Source of the DNA: a phage
Length of the DNA: 64,000 bases
Strand: one strand, 5' to 3'
Sequence record: PX421306.1
Under the pieces are notes generated by a model. The model had not been told where the DNA came from, ran no database searches, and saw only the letters and a program-made list of their open reading frames with translations. Positions 5,928-48,396 of this stretch are shown one piece after another (positions within the stretch are counted from its first letter, which is position 1; each line of letters starts with the position of its first letter). A program made the position numbers and the translations under genes.

Positions 5928-6141
5928 ATTCTACTTCCTCACCAGTACATAAATCATATTCAACTAAACGAATAGGTTCATGAATGCCATATCCCTGAAC
6001 AGAAATTTCTGTCGTAGGATAAATTCCATCAATATCACCCATATTCCATGCTTCATTAAATTGCTGTTCGCCTGAATTACTAAACCACTCGGCGAAAGCA
6101 TTTAGCACATCTTTAGAACCTTCAATAATTATCTTTGCCAT
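5920..6141 (-). CDS. hypothetical protein
   Basis: 73-aa ORF; start overlaps stop of upstream gene by 1 nt. Confidence 0.5.
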   Translation of the reverse strand: MAKIIIEGSKDVLNAFAEWFSNSGEQQFNEAWNMGDIDGIYPTTEISVQGYGIHEPIRLVEYDLCTGEEVEYD

Positions 6142-6515
6142 TACAGACTCTCGGTAAAGGTACGAGCGATAACGTCGCGCTGCTGTTCCGGAGTCAGAGA
6201 GTTAAAGCGAACTGCATAACCGGATACACGGATGGTCAGCTGCGGATATTTTTCTGGATGCTTAACTGCATCTTCCAGAGTTTCACGGCGCAGAACGTTA
6301 ACGTTCAGGTGTTGACCACCTTCAATTTTAACTGTAGGTTGTGTTTCAATTTCAATTTCACGGGCATGCAAACCGTAGAAAATTTCTGGGTCTACAAAAG
6401 AGTCCTCTTTAAAGGTTTTAGAGACAATAATTCGTGCTTGAATACCGTCTTCAAAATAAATAGTACCTTTATGCGTGCCTTCAAGAATTTGATATGCTTT
6501 CATATAACCTCTCAA
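6141..6515 (-). CDS. autonomous glycyl-radical cofactor (GrcA/YfiD-like, T4 Y06I-like)
   Basis: 124 aa; C-terminal RVSGYAVRF glycyl-radical motif as in pyruvate formate-lyase C-terminus and GrcA. Confidence 0.75.
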
Positions 6516-6838
6516 TTAGAAAATAAATTTATCCAAGACTGTTCTTTAATTAAAAATGGCTCAGAATCATATGCCATTAAACTTTGGGTGATTAGTCCTT
6601 TAAAAGGTCCATCAATAAATTCCATGGTAAAATATGGAATTTTATTCATTAATCTTGCATTAGGAGCAGTGCACAAAACTCTGCATCCTTTGAATACGCC
6701 TTTTTGTAATTTGTATTGCTTAGGATAAAATTCGCTCAAGACGTTATTATTTGCCAAAATTTCAAAATGATTCACCAATTTATTTTTAATAGTTTTTGGC
6801 GAAAAATAAAGATATTCGAAAAGTTGCGTGTCTGTCAT
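6512..6838 (-). CDS. hypothetical protein
   Basis: Start moved to ATG 6838 (MTDTQ...) overlapping upstream stop (TAATG); ATGA overlap with downstream gene. Confidence 0.5.
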
Positions 6839-7377
6839 CATTGCATTCCGATTATGAAAAACTGTGGACGAGTAATACCACCAATGCAGCATTTACTATT
6901 GCAACAGTGGTGCACAGTTTCAATATGAATATCGTAAATTTTATCCATATCAGGAGATTTAACAGGCTCATCGATTATATACAAAATCCGCGAAAGCGAT
7001 AAACCTCTGAACTTGCTTCCTTTATTACCGATAAAACTACGGACAGAATCGGTAAATAAGCGGAATCGAATATCATCGCCAGAATAACGAGAAAATTCTT
7101 TTTTAATGTGGCCCGCAGAAATTTTAGCGTAAGCTGAAGTATTAGAAAGAACAATAACTGTTCCACCGTCATATAACCAATTAGCGGCAAAATTAGTTAC
7201 TGCAGTTGATTTACCGGATTGACGTCCACCATCTAAACGAAGTGTGCAATACTGCTTAAGTAAGTCTTCAAATGGTGGGATATAATCGTTTTTACAAATT
7301 TCTTCTACTCTAGCATCAGAATGGTGTGTAAAAGCATTCATCAGGGATAGATAAGGACCAGTTAAAAATGTTCTCAT
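6838..7377 (-). CDS. P-loop NTPase-like protein
   Basis: Walker A-like GGRQSGKST; start set at ATG 7377 (MRTFLTG...) with purine-rich RBS; 5' extent uncertain. Confidence 0.5.
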   Translation of the reverse strand: MRTFLTGPYLSLMNAFTHHSDARVEEICKNDYIPPFEDLLKQYCTLRLDGGRQSGKSTAVTNFAANWLYDGGTVIVLSNTSAYAKISAGHIKKEFSRYSGDDIRFRLFTDSVRSFIGNKGSKFRGLSLSRILYIIDEPVKSPDMDKIYDIHIETVHHCCNSKCCIGGITRPQFFIIGMQ

Positions 7378-7517
7378 TTTATTCTCTCTAAATTTGGGCC
7401 ATTCCATGGCGCATGAATTGTCCATTTCTGTATTTACCCATTACCGCACTTGGGCTCGACCTTATTACAGGTTGGCGGAATCCCTCACAGAATCATGAGG
7501 TCCAGGTTGTTCCCATA

Positions 7518-7991
7518 TTATTTGAATGATTTGACGTACTGAATAGAACCTTTACTATTCACGAAAGCGATTTTACCATTCTTATTATACATGGTAGCAG
7601 TACGCTGATAGCCATAAGTTTGCTTACCGGATTGATAACCAACTAATGCGAAATTATCTTCACCCATTTTATTCTGTTTAGCACGAATACGTTCATGACC
7701 GTGTGCCATAAGAACCTTAGCATCACCAGTTGAAATTGATCTACGAGTTTTTTCATCTTCAACTGTATTAACAAAGTCGTCAAATGAATCAAATTTAGCA
7801 TGGGATTTATTATACAGTTTTCCATCTACTGCATAATTATATCCCTGTACATCCATCTCAACTTCTGTACCATCATCCAATACAGCAGTGATTTTTTGAC
7901 CTTTTTTAAATTTCAAAAGATCAGTAAAAGATTCAGCAATAATTTGAGAATTAATAGCTGCTTCAGTAATAAATTCTTGATATGTTTTCAT
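7518..7991 (-). CDS. internal head protein (IPIII-like, capsid-targeted)
   Basis: 157 aa; N-terminal MKTYQEFITEAA leader matching the T4 capsid targeting sequence cleaved by prohead protease after E. Confidence 0.75.
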   Translation of the reverse strand: MKTYQEFITEAAINSQIIAESFTDLLKFKKGQKITAVLDDGTEVEMDVQGYNYAVDGKLYNKSHAKFDSFDDFVNTVEDEKTRRSISTGDAKVLMAHGHERIRAKQNKMGEDNFALVGYQSGKQTYGYQRTATMYNKNGKIAFVNSKGSIQYVKSFK

Positions 7992-8005
7992 GTGTATCCT
8001 TTAAT

Positions 8006-8323
8006 TTATTCTTTAGGGAAGTTTTTAGAATATGCATCATAAAGCTTATTTCCAATACGGCGGAAAACTCTAGCCGCAAAACGATTTTCTGGGTTTTTAA
8101 TCATGATTTGCATCATATAAGTACCCGCGTCAGAAAGAGCTTCTTCATAGTACCCATTAATTTCTTTAAGAGTCCTACGTTTACCACCAGGACCATCAAC
8201 AGTAATTTTCCATTTACCTGTAGAAGTGCGGCTCGGTGGCTCAACTTGTTCAATCCAAATATAACCTCCTTCTACACGTTGTCCTTGGGCAGATTCTGCA
8301 ATAAATTCTTTATACGTTTTCAT
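8006..8323 (-). CDS. internal head protein (IPII-like, capsid-targeted)
   Basis: 105 aa; N-terminal MKTYKEFIAESA targeting leader. Confidence 0.75.
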   Translation of the reverse strand: MKTYKEFIAESAQGQRVEGGYIWIEQVEPPSRTSTGKWKITVDGPGGKRRTLKEINGYYEEALSDAGTYMMQIMIKNPENRFAARVFRRIGNKLYDAYSKNFPKE

Positions 8324-8332
8324 ATGTTTCCT

Positions 8333-8749
8333 TTAAATGTAAATATTTTTGCCGTAATACTTGTACCAGTGTGGCTTCATTAAAATTTTTTCATCGAGTC
8401 GTTGTTGACTCAATTTAATAGCTGATTTGCATGGATTATAATCATTTTTCCATTCTGCTGGAATATCACTGATGTCAGGAACTTCAGTATCTTTTATACT
8501 AAACCCACGTTTTAAGCATTCCGTTATAATGTCTGATTGACGCTTTCGCAAAAATTCTAACTTATCGTAAAAGAACGTAACATGACCAGAACCTAAAATA
8601 AACTCGGAAGATATTTTAAAATCTTTAACCCGCTTACCATTTGCCACGTGTTTACGAACTATACCAAAAACACGTGGCAATTCACGGTATTCTGCGATTA
8701 AATGCTGATCAGCAAGTTCAGATACTAAAGTCAAATTAATACGAGTCAT
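8333..8749 (-). CDS. denV: endonuclease V (pyrimidine dimer DNA glycosylase)
   Basis: 138 aa; [17 protein letters not shown]... closely matches T4 endonuclease V as recalled. Confidence 0.92.
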
Positions 8750-8769: not shown

Positions 8770-8805
8770 TGAATATACTATCACAATTCTAGGAGAAAGT
8801 AAACC
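8770..8805 (-). promoter_or_regulatory. early-type promoter upstream of denV
   Basis: Minus-strand GTTTAC (8799-8804) and ATAGTAT-like -10. Confidence 0.45.
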
Positions 8806-8808
8806 ACT

Positions 8809-9339
<531 letters not shown>

Positions 9340-9795
9340 TTAAAAGAGGCTGTTCATTATTCGGTAAAGTGAAGGACCCATCACATATTGCCACTGAGTA
9401 CGAGGAATAAGGGCAAAAGCATCCATCTCTGGAATCATAACACCATCTTTATTTTCAAAATAAGACTCGCAATGGCAATTTCTAAACATCTCATGCTCTA
9501 CTGGAATCGTATAATAAAATAACTGTAAGTCTTTATTACTAGAATATTTAAATACACCTAGGTCTTCTAGAAGGTCTGGACTATAATTGCTAAAACCGGT
9601 CTCTTCTAAACATTCTCTTCGTGCTGCATCTAGTGCGCTTAAATCAGAATTTTCTACGCGCCCCCTTGGAATATCCCAGCGATGTGCCATCATTCCAGGC
9701 TTACGAGAACCAGTAACTCGTCCCATAAATAAATCTTTATCTTCTGTCATAAAGATAATACCAGCTGATAATGTTTTCATTTTAATTTCCTGCAT
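9340..9795 (-). CDS. nudE: Nudix hydrolase
   Basis: 151 aa; Nudix box GRVENSDLSALDAARRECLEETGF; position downstream partner of e as in T4. Confidence 0.85.
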   Translation of the reverse strand: MQEIKMKTLSAGIIFMTEDKDLFMGRVTGSRKPGMMAHRWDIPRGRVENSDLSALDAARRECLEETGFSNYSPDLLEDLGVFKYSSNKDLQLFYYTIPVEHEMFRNCHCESYFENKDGVMIPEMDAFALIPRTQWQYVMGPSLYRIMNSLF

Positions 9796-14543: not shown

Positions 14544-15017
14544 TTATTTGATTTGTTTAGCAGACCAAATGCGGTCTTTGATGATTTTTTGGATGTCTTC
14601 AACATACTCTAGGTCATGAGCATGTGGGTTATCTTTGAAACTATAAGCACGAGCTAGTTTTTGGCCTTCAGTTTTGATTACTAAAAGCTCTTTAAGGATA
14701 GCTTCATATTTAGCGATAATTCCTTTAACAATATTTTTTTCTTGTGCAGCTTTAGGATCTGCTTTAGGAGCAGGTTTACCCGAAGCCTTTGCAAAAGCAG
14801 CACCAGTAGCAACTAAACTTTTCCAGGCCATACTAACCGCATTTCCTGTAAATCCTTCTGCTTTCATGTCGCGAGCAAACTGGAATCGTGATTCGTCAGA
14901 AGCATCTTTATAGGAATATTTACCCGCTGCAATGGCTGCTTTTGCGACAGCTTGAATTTCGGTGCTAGATGCTTCATTTAACACCGCTTCATTTAAAAAT
15001 TGAGCATATGATTTCAT
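14544..15017 (-). CDS. internal-protein-like capsid-targeted protein
   Basis: 157 aa; N-terminal MKSYAQFLNEAV leader of same type; Ala/Lys-rich body. Confidence 0.7.
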   Translation of the reverse strand: MKSYAQFLNEAVLNEASSTEIQAVAKAAIAAGKYSYKDASDESRFQFARDMKAEGFTGNAVSMAWKSLVATGAAFAKASGKPAPKADPKAAQEKNIVKGIIAKYEAILKELLVIKTEGQKLARAYSFKDNPHAHDLEYVEDIQKIIKDRIWSAKQIK

Positions 15018-15772: not shown

Positions 15773-15848
15773 TGGTCGAGGCAGTAGGGATCGAACCTAC
15801 GACCTAGGACTTAGAAGGTCCTTGCTCTTCCTTCTGAGCTATGCCTCG
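15773..15848 (-). tRNA. tRNA-Arg (anticodon UCU)
   Basis: Hand-folded cloverleaf: acceptor CGAGGCA/TGCCTCG, D-stem GCTC/GAGC, anticodon loop CUUCUAA, T-loop TTCGATC, encoded CCA. Confidence 0.8.
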
Positions 15849-15852
15849 GATT

Positions 15853-15927
15853 TGGCGGACGTGATAGGATTCGAACCTATAACCAATCGCTTAACAGGCG
15901 ATCGCTCTGCCATTGAGCTACACATCC
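15853..15927 (-). tRNA. tRNA-Asn (anticodon GUU)
   Basis: Hand-folded: acceptor GGATGTG/CACGTCC, anticodon loop CUGUUAA, T-loop TTCGAAT, encoded CCA. Confidence 0.7.
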
Positions 15928-15931
15928 AAAT

Positions 15932-16018
15932 TGGTGGGGAGTGATGGAGTCGAACCACCCGAGTCGCAATGACAATGGATTTACAGTCCACACCGCTACC
16001 TCTACGGGATAACTCCCC
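15932..16018 (-). tRNA. tRNA-Tyr (anticodon GUA), long variable arm
   Basis: Hand-folded: acceptor GGGGAGT/ACTCCCC, anticodon loop CUGUAAA, long variable arm, encoded CCA. Confidence 0.7.
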
Positions 16019-16031
16019 TTAATTCTTAATT

Positions 16032-16106
16032 TGGTGGCCCTGGGTGGAATTGAACCACCATCTGGCGATTATGAGTCGCTTGCTTGAACCTTCCAGCTAC
16101 AGGGCC
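16032..16106 (-). tRNA. tRNA with CAU anticodon (Met or lysidine-modified Ile)
   Basis: Hand-folded: acceptor GGCCCTG/CAGGGCC, anticodon loop CUCAUAA, T-loop TTCAATT. Confidence 0.7.
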
Positions 16107-16107
16107 T

Positions 16108-16183
16108 TGGTGCTGATTGACGGAATCGAACCGCCGACCTTCTCATTACAAGTGAGTTGCTCTACCTACTAAGCTAAATCAGC
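16108..16183 (-). tRNA. tRNA-Thr (anticodon UGU)
   Basis: Hand-folded: anticodon loop CUUGUAA, T-loop TTCGATT, encoded CCA. Confidence 0.75.
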
Positions 16184-16188
16184 AAAAC

Positions 16189-16278
16189 TGGCGGAGGCGA
16201 TAGGATTTGAACCTATGAGTCGCCGGAACGACTGCCGGTTTTCAAGACCGGTGCATTAAACCACTCTGCCACGCCTCC
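16189..16278 (-). tRNA. tRNA-Ser (anticodon UGA), long variable arm
   Basis: Hand-folded: acceptor GGAGGCG/CGCCTCC, anticodon loop CUUGAAA, long variable arm. Confidence 0.75.
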
Positions 16279-16281
16279 AGT

Positions 16282-16354
16282 CTCCATACAAGGATTTGAA
16301 CCTTGGACCTCCTGATCCCAAATCAGGCGCTCTACCAAACTGAGCTACACGGAG
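16282..16354 (-). tRNA. tRNA-Pro (anticodon UGG), CCA not encoded
   Basis: Hand-folded: D-arm TAGCTCAGTTTGGTAGAGC, anticodon loop UUUGGGA; abuts 5' end of tRNA-Ser (dimeric precursor arrangement). Confidence 0.7.
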
Positions 16355-16364
16355 TAAATTAAAT

Positions 16365-16438
<74 letters not shown>

Positions 16439-16443
16439 AAATT

Positions 16444-16530
16444 TGGTGCGAGAAGTGGGACTCGAACCCACAAGGAAATCATTCCGCAGCATTTTAAGTG
16501 CTGTGCCTTTACCAATTTGACCATTCTCGC
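16444..16530 (-). tRNA. tRNA-Leu (anticodon UAA), long variable arm
   Basis: Hand-folded: GCGAGAATGGTCAAATTGGTAAAGG..., anticodon loop CUUAAAA, T-loop TTCGAGT. Confidence 0.8.
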
Positions 16531-16531
16531 G

Positions 16532-16604
16532 CTGGGAATAAAGGACTCGAACCTTTGCATCCTGGAATCAAAATCCAGTGCCTTACCAACTTGGCTAATT
16601 CCCA
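16532..16604 (-). tRNA. tRNA-Gln (anticodon UUG), CCA not encoded
   Basis: Hand-folded: TGGGAATTAGCCAAGTTGGTAAGG..., anticodon loop UUUUGAU; directly abuts tRNA-Leu (dimeric precursor). Confidence 0.75.
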
Positions 16605-17632: not shown

Positions 17633-17920
17633 TTACAAAAGATTTTTAGCAATAATCTTGAGATGTGCCGCAGAAATGTGTTTAGCTTTAAACAACGCAG
17701 TTTCTTCAGCAGGAGAGATAATGATTGTAGCACCATCCTTTTTAGCAGACCACCCATCACCTAGGTAAACAGTACCTTTGATTTCTTCGCCATCAACCAA
17801 ACTAATCATTGGTTTACCTTCTCGTCCTTTATTTGCTTTAATAACTTCAGAAGTAAGAGTAGCTTCAGTAATAGTAGAAACCGGGGTAGTTGTAGAAGTA
17901 AATTCTTTGAAAGTTTTCAT
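17633..17920 (-). CDS. ipI: internal head protein I (injected, anti-restriction in T4)
   Basis: 95 aa as in T4 IPI; 19-residue leader MKTFKEFTSTTTPVSTITE then A, consistent with the IPI prosequence. Confidence 0.8.
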   Translation of the reverse strand: MKTFKEFTSTTTPVSTITEATLTSEVIKANKGREGKPMISLVDGEEIKGTVYLGDGWSAKKDGATIIISPAEETALFKAKHISAAHLKIIAKNLL

Positions 17921-46493: not shown

Positions 46494-46918
46494 TGCTTCT
46501 GATCCCTGAAACTCATGAATTAGTTCTCGAGAATGTCGAAGCACTTATTCCTGAAGCACAGGGTCGCTTTGACGAATTGTCTTCTGCTTTAAATAAAGAC
46601 GATATAAATACAATTATCGAGAATATGCTTGATGATGAAACTGATTTAGCAGTTGCATTAGCTTCTATTAATGAAAATATGCCGTTAAATGAATTCATTG
46701 TTAAGCATGTTTCAGCTCGTGGTGAAATTACACGTACTAAAGACCGCAAAACGCGCGAACGTAATGCATTTCAAACCACTGGGCTGTCTAAAGCAAAACG
46801 TAGACAAATTGCTCGCAAAGCTACCAAAACGAAGATTGCCAATCCAGCAGGTCAATCTCGTGCTCAGCGTAAGCGTAAAAAAGCTCTTAAACGCCGTAAA
46901 GCATTAGGATTAAGCTAA
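46493..46918 (+). CDS. 68: gp68 prohead core protein
   Basis: 141 aa as T4 gp68; basic C-terminus. Confidence 0.88.
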
Positions 46919-47556
46919 TGAATGAACCCCAATTACTAATTGAAACTTGGGGTCAACCTGGCGAAATTATTGATGGCGTGCCAATGCTTGAATCTCATGA
47001 TGGAAAAGACTTAGGTTTAAAACCTGGTTTATACATCGAAGGAATATTCATGCAAGCGGAAGTCGTCAATAGAAATAAACGTCTTTATCCAAAACGCATA
47101 TTAGAAAAAGCGGTAAAAGACTATATTAATGAGCAAGTTTTAACTAAACAAGCTCTCGGAGAATTAAATCATCCTCCACGCGCTAATGTTGACCCGATGC
47201 AAGCCGCTATCATTATAGAAGATATGTGGTGGAAAGGAAATGACGTATACGGACGAGCTCGTGTTATTGAAGGTGACCACGGTCCTGGAGATAAATTAGC
47301 AGCTAATATTCGTGCCGGATGGATTCCAGGAGTTTCTTCTCGTGGATTAGGTTCATTGACTGACACAAATAAAGGTTATCGTATCGTAAACGAAGGATTC
47401 AAATTAACTGTAGGTGTTGATGCAGTATGGGGTCCAAGTGCTCCAGATGCATGGGTAACTCCTAAGGAAATTACCGAATCACAGACGGCGGAAGCCGATA
47501 CAAGTGCCGATGACGCCTATATGGCTCTCGCAGAGGCCATGAAAAAAGCGTTATAA
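46918..47556 (+). CDS. 21: gp21 prohead core protease
   Basis: 212 aa as T4 gp21; synteny 68-21-22-23. Confidence 0.93.
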   Translation: MNEPQLLIETWGQPGEIIDGVPMLESHDGKDLGLKPGLYIEGIFMQAEVVNRNKRLYPKRILEKAVKDYINEQVLTKQALGELNHPPRANVDPMQAAIIIEDMWWKGNDVYGRARVIEGDHGPGDKLAANIRAGWIPGVSSRGLGSLTDTNKGYRIVNEGFKLTVGVDAVWGPSAPDAWVTPKEITESQTAEADTSADDAYMALAEAMKKAL

Positions 47557-47586: not shown

Positions 47587-48396
47587 ATGCTTAAAGAACA
47601 ACTGATTGCTGAAGCGCAAAAAATTGATGCTTCCGTTGCTCTTGATAGTATTTTCGAATCAGTTAATATTTCTCCGGAAGCAAAAGAAACTTTCGGCACT
47701 GTATTCGAAGCTACCGTCAAGCAGCACGCCGTTAAATTAGCTGAATCTCATATCGCTAAAATTGCTGAAAAAGCAGAAGAAGAAGTAGAAAAAAATAAAG
47801 AAGAAGCCGAAGAAAAAGCTGAGAAGAAAATCGCTGAGCAAGCTTCTAAATTCATCGACCATCTTGCGAAAGAATGGCTCGCCGAAAATAAATTAGCAGT
47901 TGATAAAGGCATCAAAGCCGAACTGTTTGAATCCATGCTTGGTGGATTAAAAGAGCTCTTTGTTGAACACAACGTTGTTGTTCCAGAAGAATCAGTTGAT
48001 GTTGTGGCTGAAATGGAAGAAGAGCTGCAAGAACATAAAGAAGAATCAGCTCGTCTGTTCGAAGAACTCAATATGCGCGACGCATATATCAATTATGTGC
48101 AGCGTGAAGTGGCATTGAGCGAAAGTACTAAAGATCTGACTGAGTCTCAAAAAGAAAAAGTCTCTGCTCTGGTCGAAGGTATGGATTATTCAGATGAATT
48201 CTCAAATAAATTGAGTGCCATCGTAGAAATGGTGAAGAAGTCTAATAAAGATGAAAGCACTATTACTGAGAGTATAAATACTCCTGATACTGAAGCAGCC
48301 GGACTGAATTTCGTCACTGAAGCTGTAGAAGATAAAGCTGCACCTGGTGCAGAAGATATTGTAAGTGTATATGCGAAAGTCGCATCTCGTTTCTAA
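47587..48396 (+). CDS. 22: gp22 prohead core scaffold
   Basis: 269 aa; long acidic helical scaffold sequence. Confidence 0.93.
   Translation: MLKEQLIAEAQKIDASVALDSIFESVNISPEAKETFGTVFEATVKQHAVKLAESHIAKIAEKAEEEVEKNKEEAEEKAEKKIAEQASKFIDHLAKEWLAENKLAVDKGIKAELFESMLGGLKELFVEHNVVVPEESVDVVAEMEEELQEHKEESARLFEELNMRDAYINYVQREVALSESTKDLTESQKEKVSALVEGMDYSDEFSNKLSAIVEMVKKSNKDESTITESINTPDTEAAGLNFVTEAVEDKAAPGAEDIVSVYAKVASRF

Follow-up and report, generated by a model that had tools for sequence, protein, structure and literature searches.

The window analysed here is a stretch of 64,000 nucleotides from phage sequence record PX421306.1. The phage is T4-like and belongs to Tequatrovirus. Two small genes, encoding precursors of 105 and 157 amino acids, lie side by side close to the lysozyme gene e and the endonuclease V gene denV (Table 1). 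In the list of open reading frames (ORFs), all genes of this locus are on the minus strand, and their transcription order is e-denV-[105 aa]-[157 aa]-vs.8. No ORF lies in the 59 bp between e and denV, and the gaps that separate denV from the 105-aa gene and the 105-aa gene from the 157-aa gene are 9 bp and 14 bp, respectively. A 1-kb stretch around the two genes is matched by 769 phage records, with Shigella phage A2 as the best full-length match (96%). The original prediction, made from the letters of the window, had placed two ORFs with the same leader downstream of denV rather than between denV and e, in an order that differs from T4. The ORF list and the T4 record bear this out. In the T4 record, the transcription order is e, ipIII, ipII, denV, vs.8, vs.7, vs.6.

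The leader shared by the two products is the capsid-targeting type of the T4 internal proteins. A degenerate DNA pattern for the leader has 3 matches in the window and none in 100 dinucleotide-preserving shuffles. A looser protein scan of the window identified five leader-bearing ORFs, including ipI, which agrees with the earlier count of five genes against T4's three. The ipI product of the window and T4 IPI are the same except at one residue.

Table 1. Features of the e-denV-vs.8 locus and related features elsewhere in the window (a slash marks the end of the leader)
Feature	Position	Strand	Basis or remark
vs.6, GrcA-like	6141-6515	-	ORF list
vs.7	6512-6892	-	ORF list
vs.8 homologue, downstream border of the locus	6838-7425	-	
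Right junction, vs.8 5' region	7426-7517	-	Next after the denV stop codon in T4
ipIV/ip4-type internal protein gene, 157-aa precursor	7518-7991	-	ORF, Pfam DUF7412
48-nt direct repeat, copy 2	7957-8004		Before ipIV
IpIV leader coding sequence, 10 residues, MKTYQEFITE/AA	7962-7991	-	I-T-E/A fits the gp21 motif L/I-x-E
ip10-type internal protein gene, 105-aa precursor	8006-8323	-	ORF, PHROG 3966
48-nt direct repeat, copy 1	8289-8336		Ribosome-binding region and leader; overlaps the last denV codons
Ip10 leader coding sequence, 10 residues, MKTYKEFIAE/SA	8294-8323	-	I-A-E/S fits the gp21 motif L/I-x-E
denV (endonuclease V), fixed gene between two cassette slots	8333-8749	-	
PeSL-type early promoter, TTTACT-N17-TAGTAT, e-denV spacer	8775-8803	-	Consensus from PMC4122927
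e (lysozyme), upstream border of the locus	8809-9303	-	
Two TATAAATA late-promoter boxes upstream of e	9317-9337	-	
nudE	9340-9795	-	ORF list
Leader-bearing ORF, MKTYAEFLTE/AA	13856-14419		Protein scan
Leader-bearing ORF, MKSYAQFLNE/AV	14544-15017		Protein scan
ipI, 19-residue leader variant	17633-17920		Protein scan
Gene 21, prohead protease	46918-47556	+	Pfam Peptidase_S77, 371 bits
Gene 22, scaffolding core protein	47587-48396	+	Pfam T4_CASP

By its sequence, the 157-aa protein is IpIV, also named Ip4. It matches Pfam family DUF7412 at 318.2 bits (cut-off 27), with residues 1-157 aligned to profile positions 1-158, and PHROG 3155, "internal virion protein". Its mature region and that of the T2 ipIV product are 99.3% identical. 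Homologues occur in 471 phage records (tblastn) and are named "IpIV internal head protein", "Ip4", or "lp4" in other records. Carriers include phages of Klebsiella, Salmonella, and Serratia, at 60-74% identity. The predicted mature protein has 147 aa, a mass of 16.5 kDa, and a pI of 9.1, and the AlphaFold2 model is a compact alpha/beta domain (pLDDT 76.6). In the family alignment (60-99% identity), M1, K2, F7, E10, and E20 are invariant, and two homologues carry Phe in place of Y4. A second hydrophobic-x-E sequence ends at residue 20 and is as conserved as the one at the end of the leader; it may be a second gp21 cleavage site.

The 105-aa protein, judged on the same kind of matches, is Ip10. 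It matches PHROG 3966 over residues 1-105 (E 3.9e-34), and a Pfam search gave no match. It is 98.9% identical to the "Ip10 internal head protein" of PP01, which has the same leader and locus, as do the Ip10 proteins of SP18 and VR25 (71-72% identical). Karamvirus phages, such as CC31, encode unnamed proteins of approximately 50% identity. Homologues are found in 190 phage records. Throughout the family, down to 33% identity, M1, K2, T3, Y4, E6, F7, and E10 are invariant. The predicted mature protein is 95 aa, 10.9 kDa, with a pI of 9.6, and its AlphaFold2 model is also a compact alpha/beta domain (pLDDT 84.1). An exhaustive phmmer search against 1.84 billion representatives returned one true homologue cluster. 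The five other matches were to giant repetitive proteins (FG-GAP, RTX, Ig/SLH, filamin, and Calx-beta) and were rejected as artefacts of composition or repeats.

The Gly/Lys-rich segment pointed out earlier in the 105-aa protein is present, at residues 36-61. It is not of low complexity. In the AlphaFold2 model, residues 37-43 and 49-56 form the two strands of a beta-hairpin around a GPGG turn; this hairpin makes up most of the segment and is followed by the start of a long helix. Eleven of its positions are invariant in nine closer homologues: G36, K39, T41, D43, P45, G47, K48, R49, T51, K53, and Y59. As modelled, residues 36-61 are a conserved structural element and possibly a functional surface.

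T-even internal proteins are a diverse set that have only the capsid-targeting sequence in common (PMC3012670, PMC9026906). In T4, the first ten residues of IPIII are enough for packaging, residues 4 and 7 of the leader are needed for targeting, and residues 8 and 10 are needed for processing by gp21, which cleaves after L/I-x-E (PMC9026906). All four of these residues (Y4, F7, I8, and E10) are kept in both the Ip10 and the IpIV leader, and in both a small residue (Ser or Ala) comes right after the cleavage motif. The window also encodes the prohead machinery that these steps use in T4. Since gp21 is present and gp22, the scaffolding core protein, shares 99% identity with its T4 counterpart, the T4 experiments should transfer to this phage. 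Both mature proteins are predicted to be basic, and the T4 mature proteins have pI values of 9.6 (IPII) and 9.65 (IPIII). The internal-protein reading of the original prediction is upheld by the leader and by the family matches, and we consider it highly probable that the two products are IpIV and Ip10 and are packaged in the virion. Literature searches on virion proteomics of Ip4 and Ip10 returned no report on either protein. The precursors would bind the prohead scaffolding core through the leader, and gp21 would cut after Glu10, with a possible second cut after Glu20 in IpIV. Hundreds of copies of each would stay with the packaged DNA and enter the host with it.

Characterised proteins of this class inhibit restriction enzymes. 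T4 IPI* (Pfam IPI_T4), an inhibitor of GmrSD from E. coli CT596, is a small compact injected protein. [quoted passage not shown] Targets beyond GmrSD exist as well, as Bas37_0260, a leader-bearing protein, inhibits McrBC (bioRxiv 10.1101/2025.11.20.689424). Compared by description, Bas37_0260 has the same leader as Ip10 and IpIV but is non-homologous to them and is encoded at a different locus, the ipI locus. By analogy, each of Ip10 and IpIV would bind and block one DNA-targeting defence enzyme of the host. This enzyme would most probably be a restriction endonuclease of type IV, active on DNA with glucosyl-hydroxymethylcytosine. Neither the sequence nor the predicted fold of either protein shows likeness to IPI* or any known inhibitor, and their models resemble no solved structure. 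No significant match came from profile searches in PDB sequences, NCBIfam, and PADLOC. Because the two proteins resemble no known inhibitor, the anti-restriction step is argued from analogy and genomic position. Taken as a whole, the reading of Ip10 and IpIV as alternative T-even internal proteins that are packed, trimmed by gp21, injected, and, by analogy, able to block type IV restriction is the likely one. For type IV restriction as the target class itself, the chances seem roughly balanced.

Ip10 and IpIV could instead be mainly structural, as packaged basic proteins that serve DNA charge, core assembly, or packaging and ejection and have no specific host target. Both mature proteins are basic, and the lysines of T4 internal proteins touch DNA phosphates (PMC3012670, PMC9026906). 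Loss of IPIII slows head assembly in T4, and because IPIII has this additional effect (PMC9026906), a structural role for Ip10 and IpIV keeps some weight. Of the four families compared, IpIV also has the widest distribution, and within Tequatrovirus its sequence is highly conserved. Moreover, "ip4-10", which is matched to IpIV/Ip10 by name only, did not reproducibly inhibit the GmrSD variants in the tested panel (PMC12373910). Against this, a generic charge role needs no compact folded domains with many invariant non-basic residues and leaves the replacement of unrelated proteins between close relatives unexplained. All four characterised members of the class, furthermore, have specific restriction-enzyme targets. 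We regard a mainly structural role as unlikely.

Similarly, the two proteins could be injected effectors with some other target, such as another class of defence, a competing phage, or a component of host take-over. Injection suits any function that is needed at the first moment of infection, and T4 also injects the head protein Alt, which has ADP-ribosyltransferase activity (PMC9026906). The folds of Ip10 and IpIV, which match no known inhibitor, would also be compatible with such a role. However, no enzymatic domain or motif was detected in either protein, and the sole precedents for small leader-bearing internal proteins are inhibitors of type IV restriction. This alternative is improbable.

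A further alternative concerns ancestry. The original prediction had named as its refutation the finding that the pair are simply T4 IPII/IPIII orthologues in conserved order, and here both the proteins and the order proved different. Orthologues that have diverged or been rearranged would explain the shared leader and neighbourhood and the similar sizes (105 vs 100 aa and 157 vs 193 aa), and some GenBank records indeed call the 105-aa protein "IpII" or "internal head protein III". The leader is nearly identical over its ten residues, the mature proteins are basic, the hotspot is the same, and T4 IPII and IPIII presumably follow the same route of packaging and injection. The likeness is confined to these features. 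In BLASTP comparisons of Ip10 or IpIV with T4 IPII and IPIII, the aligned part ends at residues 12-14. IpIV and IPII gave the sole longer alignment (77 residues, 31% identity); it is anchored on the leader and receives no support from the family models. PHROG matches to other internal-protein families are either confined to the leader or marginal, and a profile-profile alignment of the IpIV family with the Ip10 family covers 13 leader columns only. The mature proteins are unrelated to each other and to T4 IPI, IPII, and IPIII. Because similarity ends after about 13 residues, Ip10 and IpIV are not orthologues of IPII and IPIII. The 157-aa protein sits in a separate Pfam family (DUF7412), both sets of proteins form distinct conserved families across hundreds of genomes, and the T4 genes lie between e and denV whereas those of the window lie after denV. 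Orthology is refuted at the level of sequence, which leaves it a very slight probability. Least credible is that the leader is a relic of recombination on unpackaged cytoplasmic accessory proteins: the leader and ribosome-binding region do recur as a DNA element that recombination could spread, but the targeting and cleavage residues are invariant in several phage genera while the bodies of the proteins have diverged to 33-60% identity, and ten IPIII residues suffice for packaging in T4 (PMC9026906), whose scaffold is 99% identical to the one encoded here.

The difference from T4 can be followed at both boundaries of the gene pair. On the left, the 27 nt before the ip10 ATG and the leader read AAAAATATTTACATTTAAAGGAAACATATGAAAAC... 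This start region and that of T4 ipII differ at 3 of 57 nt, none of them within the 27 nt upstream. The ribosome-binding stretch of ip10 overlaps the end of denV, and the denV product terminates in ...YGKNIYI vs ...YGKAIYA in T4. On the right, the sequence from the ipIV stop codon (GGGAACAACCTGGACC...) aligns at high identity to T4 sequence immediately after the denV stop codon. Therefore, relative to T4, ip10 and ipIV together make up an insertion of 806 bp whose borders fall exactly at denV and at the region upstream of vs.8. The 92-bp spacer after ipIV (the right junction in Table 1) is relatively G+C-rich and was considered as a structured RNA; it had no Rfam match and a folding z-score of +0.59, and it corresponds to the T4 vs.8 5' region. 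The two 48-nt repeat copies are 83% identical, are spaced 332 bp apart, and bracket ip10. In genomes where ipIV comes immediately after denV, homology to the window is lost at approximately position 8300, the end of the leader-coding segment.

Promoter elements also distinguish the two arrangements. The PeSL element in the e-denV spacer is nearly the same as the one that T4 has between e and ipIII. T4 has additional PeSL elements before ipII and denV, such that ipII and ipIII each have their own, in contrast to the ip10-ipIV pair of the window, which has none. On the coding strand of positions 7426-8333, there is no TATAAATA late-promoter box and no PeSL-type early promoter. The boxes upstream of e are the nearest late-promoter consensus upstream of ip10 and ipIV. 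The same late-promoter pair precedes e in T4, where none is found directly before ipII or ipIII. From these sequence features, ip10 and ipIV would lack a promoter of their own and would be expressed from transcripts that start at the early promoter before denV or at the late promoters before e and read through. According to a published proposal, genes that lie between PeSL elements may be deleted or exchanged by way of these elements (PMC4122927). Such an event between two PeSL elements could delete ipIII-ipII and give the arrangement seen in the window. Alternative cassettes would be swapped between phages by recombination in the shared leader and ribosome-site sequence and in the PeSL promoter elements.

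The e-denV-vs.8 interval is documented as a hotspot for internal-protein cassettes (PMC12373910, PMC4122927). At least 10 internal proteins have been reported, from "two Ip loci" that are called a hotspot (PMC12373910, citing Repoila et al. 1994). Between phage PST and T4, five internal-protein sequences differ (PMC4122927). Sampled genomes have variable cassette content on both sides of denV (Table 2). As in the window, ipIV lies directly upstream of vs.8 in T2, PP01, and slur07. In T2 and PP01, however, ipIV follows e or ip10 and denV is absent, whereas in the window denV is upstream of the pair. The position of ip10 also varies: it is after denV in the window, VR25, RB69, and CC31, before denV in fGh-Ecl04, and found without denV in PP01 and VPA32. 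The ip10 remnant of RB69, a phage of another genus, is near-identical.

Table 2. Gene order between e and vs.8 in the window and in other phages (IP, internal protein gene)
Phage	Gene order	Remark
T4	e-ipIII-ipII-denV-vs.8	
T2	e-ipIV-(truncated vs.8)	denV absent
PP01	e-ip10-ipIV-vs.8	denV absent
slur07	e-IP-denV-ipIV-vs.8	
Window and Shigella phage A2	e-denV-ip10-ipIV-vs.8	
RB69	e-IP-denV-IP-(ip10 remnant)-ORF123c-vs.8	
VR25	e-ip5-denV-ip10-IP-ip7-vs.8	
CC31	e-IP-denV-ip10 homologue-vs.8	
fGh-Ecl04	e-ip10 homologue-denV-vs.8	
VPA32	e-ip10 homologue-vs.8	

The arrangement found in the window is frequent. A 201-bp probe of the e/denV junction is covered to at least 80% in 239 records, and a probe of the denV/ip10 junction is covered in at least 28 published genomes. 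The 3.8-kb block from vs.6 to nudE is colinear at 94-97% in JLBYU22, PinkRuby, ESh33, A2, Ge15, JK38, and teqhal, among others, and the teqhal record labels the pair "putative internal head protein (x2)". T4-type IPIII is present in 261 records and IPII in 198, compared to 471 for IpIV. The T4 complement, with its IPII/IPIII pair, is therefore not the commonest state of the locus. Because its genes are the catalogued IpIV/Ip4 and Ip10 alleles in a documented hotspot, the ip10-ipIV arrangement is ordinary: it is named and annotated in public genomes and common among sequenced T4-like phages. The genes with their names and leader are already on record, the locus has been described as variable since 1994, and the window represents a known polymorphism of a known hotspot.

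Because all four characterised members of the class inhibit type IV restriction enzymes, Ip10 and IpIV are reasonable candidates for the next inhibitor-target pairs. Such pairs would matter for host range and for selecting T4-like phages for therapy. A more specific proposal, to which we give slightly less than an even chance, is that Ip10 and IpIV each counter a defence nuclease of enterobacteria and that the e-denV-vs.8 region is a two-slot exchanger. The nuclease could be a GmrSD subtype outside the panel tested, a McrBC- or Mrr-like enzyme, or another DNA-targeting system. The T4 ipIII-ipII genes occupy the e-denV slot and the ip10-ipIV genes of the window occupy the denV-vs.8 slot. In such an exchanger, the 48-nt ribosome-site-plus-leader sequence and the PeSL elements would be the recombination joint at which injected inhibitors are replaced, and the RB69 ip10 remnant would be a trace of cassette exchange across genera.

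The interval from the e.8-like gene to the tRNA cluster, in which T4 has no protein gene, holds two further open reading frames (ORFs) whose N-termini resemble the capsid-targeting leader. Both encoded proteins match PHROG 2280, a family of unknown function, and a BLASTP alignment of the 187-aa protein with the 157-aa protein covers the leader only. The 187-aa protein is present in 165 phage records. In all 25 of the 25 sampled rows, it is annotated as "hypothetical", as a generic "phage protein", or not at all. Together, the two ORFs have the look of an internal-protein locus, the third of its kind, which annotation has missed.

Features in the window (a slash follows residue 10 of each leader-like N-terminus)
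Feature	Position	Strand	Detail
Leader-like ORF, 187 aa	13856-14419	minus	N-terminus MKTYAEFLTE/AA
Leader-like ORF, 157 aa	14544-15017	minus	N-terminus MKSYAQFLNE/AV
tRNA cluster, ten genes	15773-16604	minus	Arg, Asn, Tyr, Met-CAT, Thr, Ser, Pro, Gly, Leu, Gln
IpIV residues 11-20	7959-7934 region		segment ending in conserved Glu20
vs.6 homologue	6141-6515	minus	GrcA-like autonomous glycyl radical cofactor; glycyl-radical motif RVSGY

The adjacent tRNA cluster also differs from that of T4, whose record annotates eight tRNAs and the homing endonuclease gene segB within the cluster. The ten tRNA genes of the window are packed nearly end to end, leaving no space among them for a segB-sized ORF.

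The internal protein IpIV may be cut by the prohead protease gp21 at a second site. Glu20 is invariant in 14 of 14 sequences of the IpIV family and is preceded by a hydrophobic residue and one variable residue (IAE, ISE, MTE, LTE, and others). Judged from this pattern, Glu20 is a possible cleavage site, and the mature protein would then begin at residue 21.

The junction of the internal-protein cassette is inside the denV reading frame. At the 3' end of denV (8333-8353), the window encodes a C-terminus of ...YGKNIYI*, whereas T4 has ...YGKAIYA*. The last codons differ because they overlap with the conserved 5' untranslated sequence of the internal-protein gene. A copy of ip10 is also found in RB69, a phage of another genus, Mosigvirus. 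This copy, ORF124c (L005, the RB69 sequence NC_004928, 3462-3774), is 97.8% identical to Ip10 of the window but is in two pieces, with a divergent and shortened C-terminus that is either frameshifted or truncated. Such near-identity suggests a recent horizontal transfer, which would have been followed by decay.

Coding of the first ~24 codons of vs.8, as annotated in T4, is not kept in the window (7380-7520, compared with ~4800-4940 of L001, the T4 sequence). Indels of 1 nt and 8 nt shift the frame in this 5' region, and protein identity with T4 vs.8 is clear only from the Met encoded at 7377 (MRTFLTG...). Either vs.8 starts later in the window, or the start annotated in T4 is too far upstream. 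The GrcA-like annotation of vs.6 is also found in T4 and its relatives. Just 5' of the e start codon, an 11-nt inverted repeat (9304-9333) surrounds one of the two TATAAATA late-promoter boxes; presumably, it corresponds to the T4 hairpin that keeps the ribosome-binding site of e masked on early transcripts.
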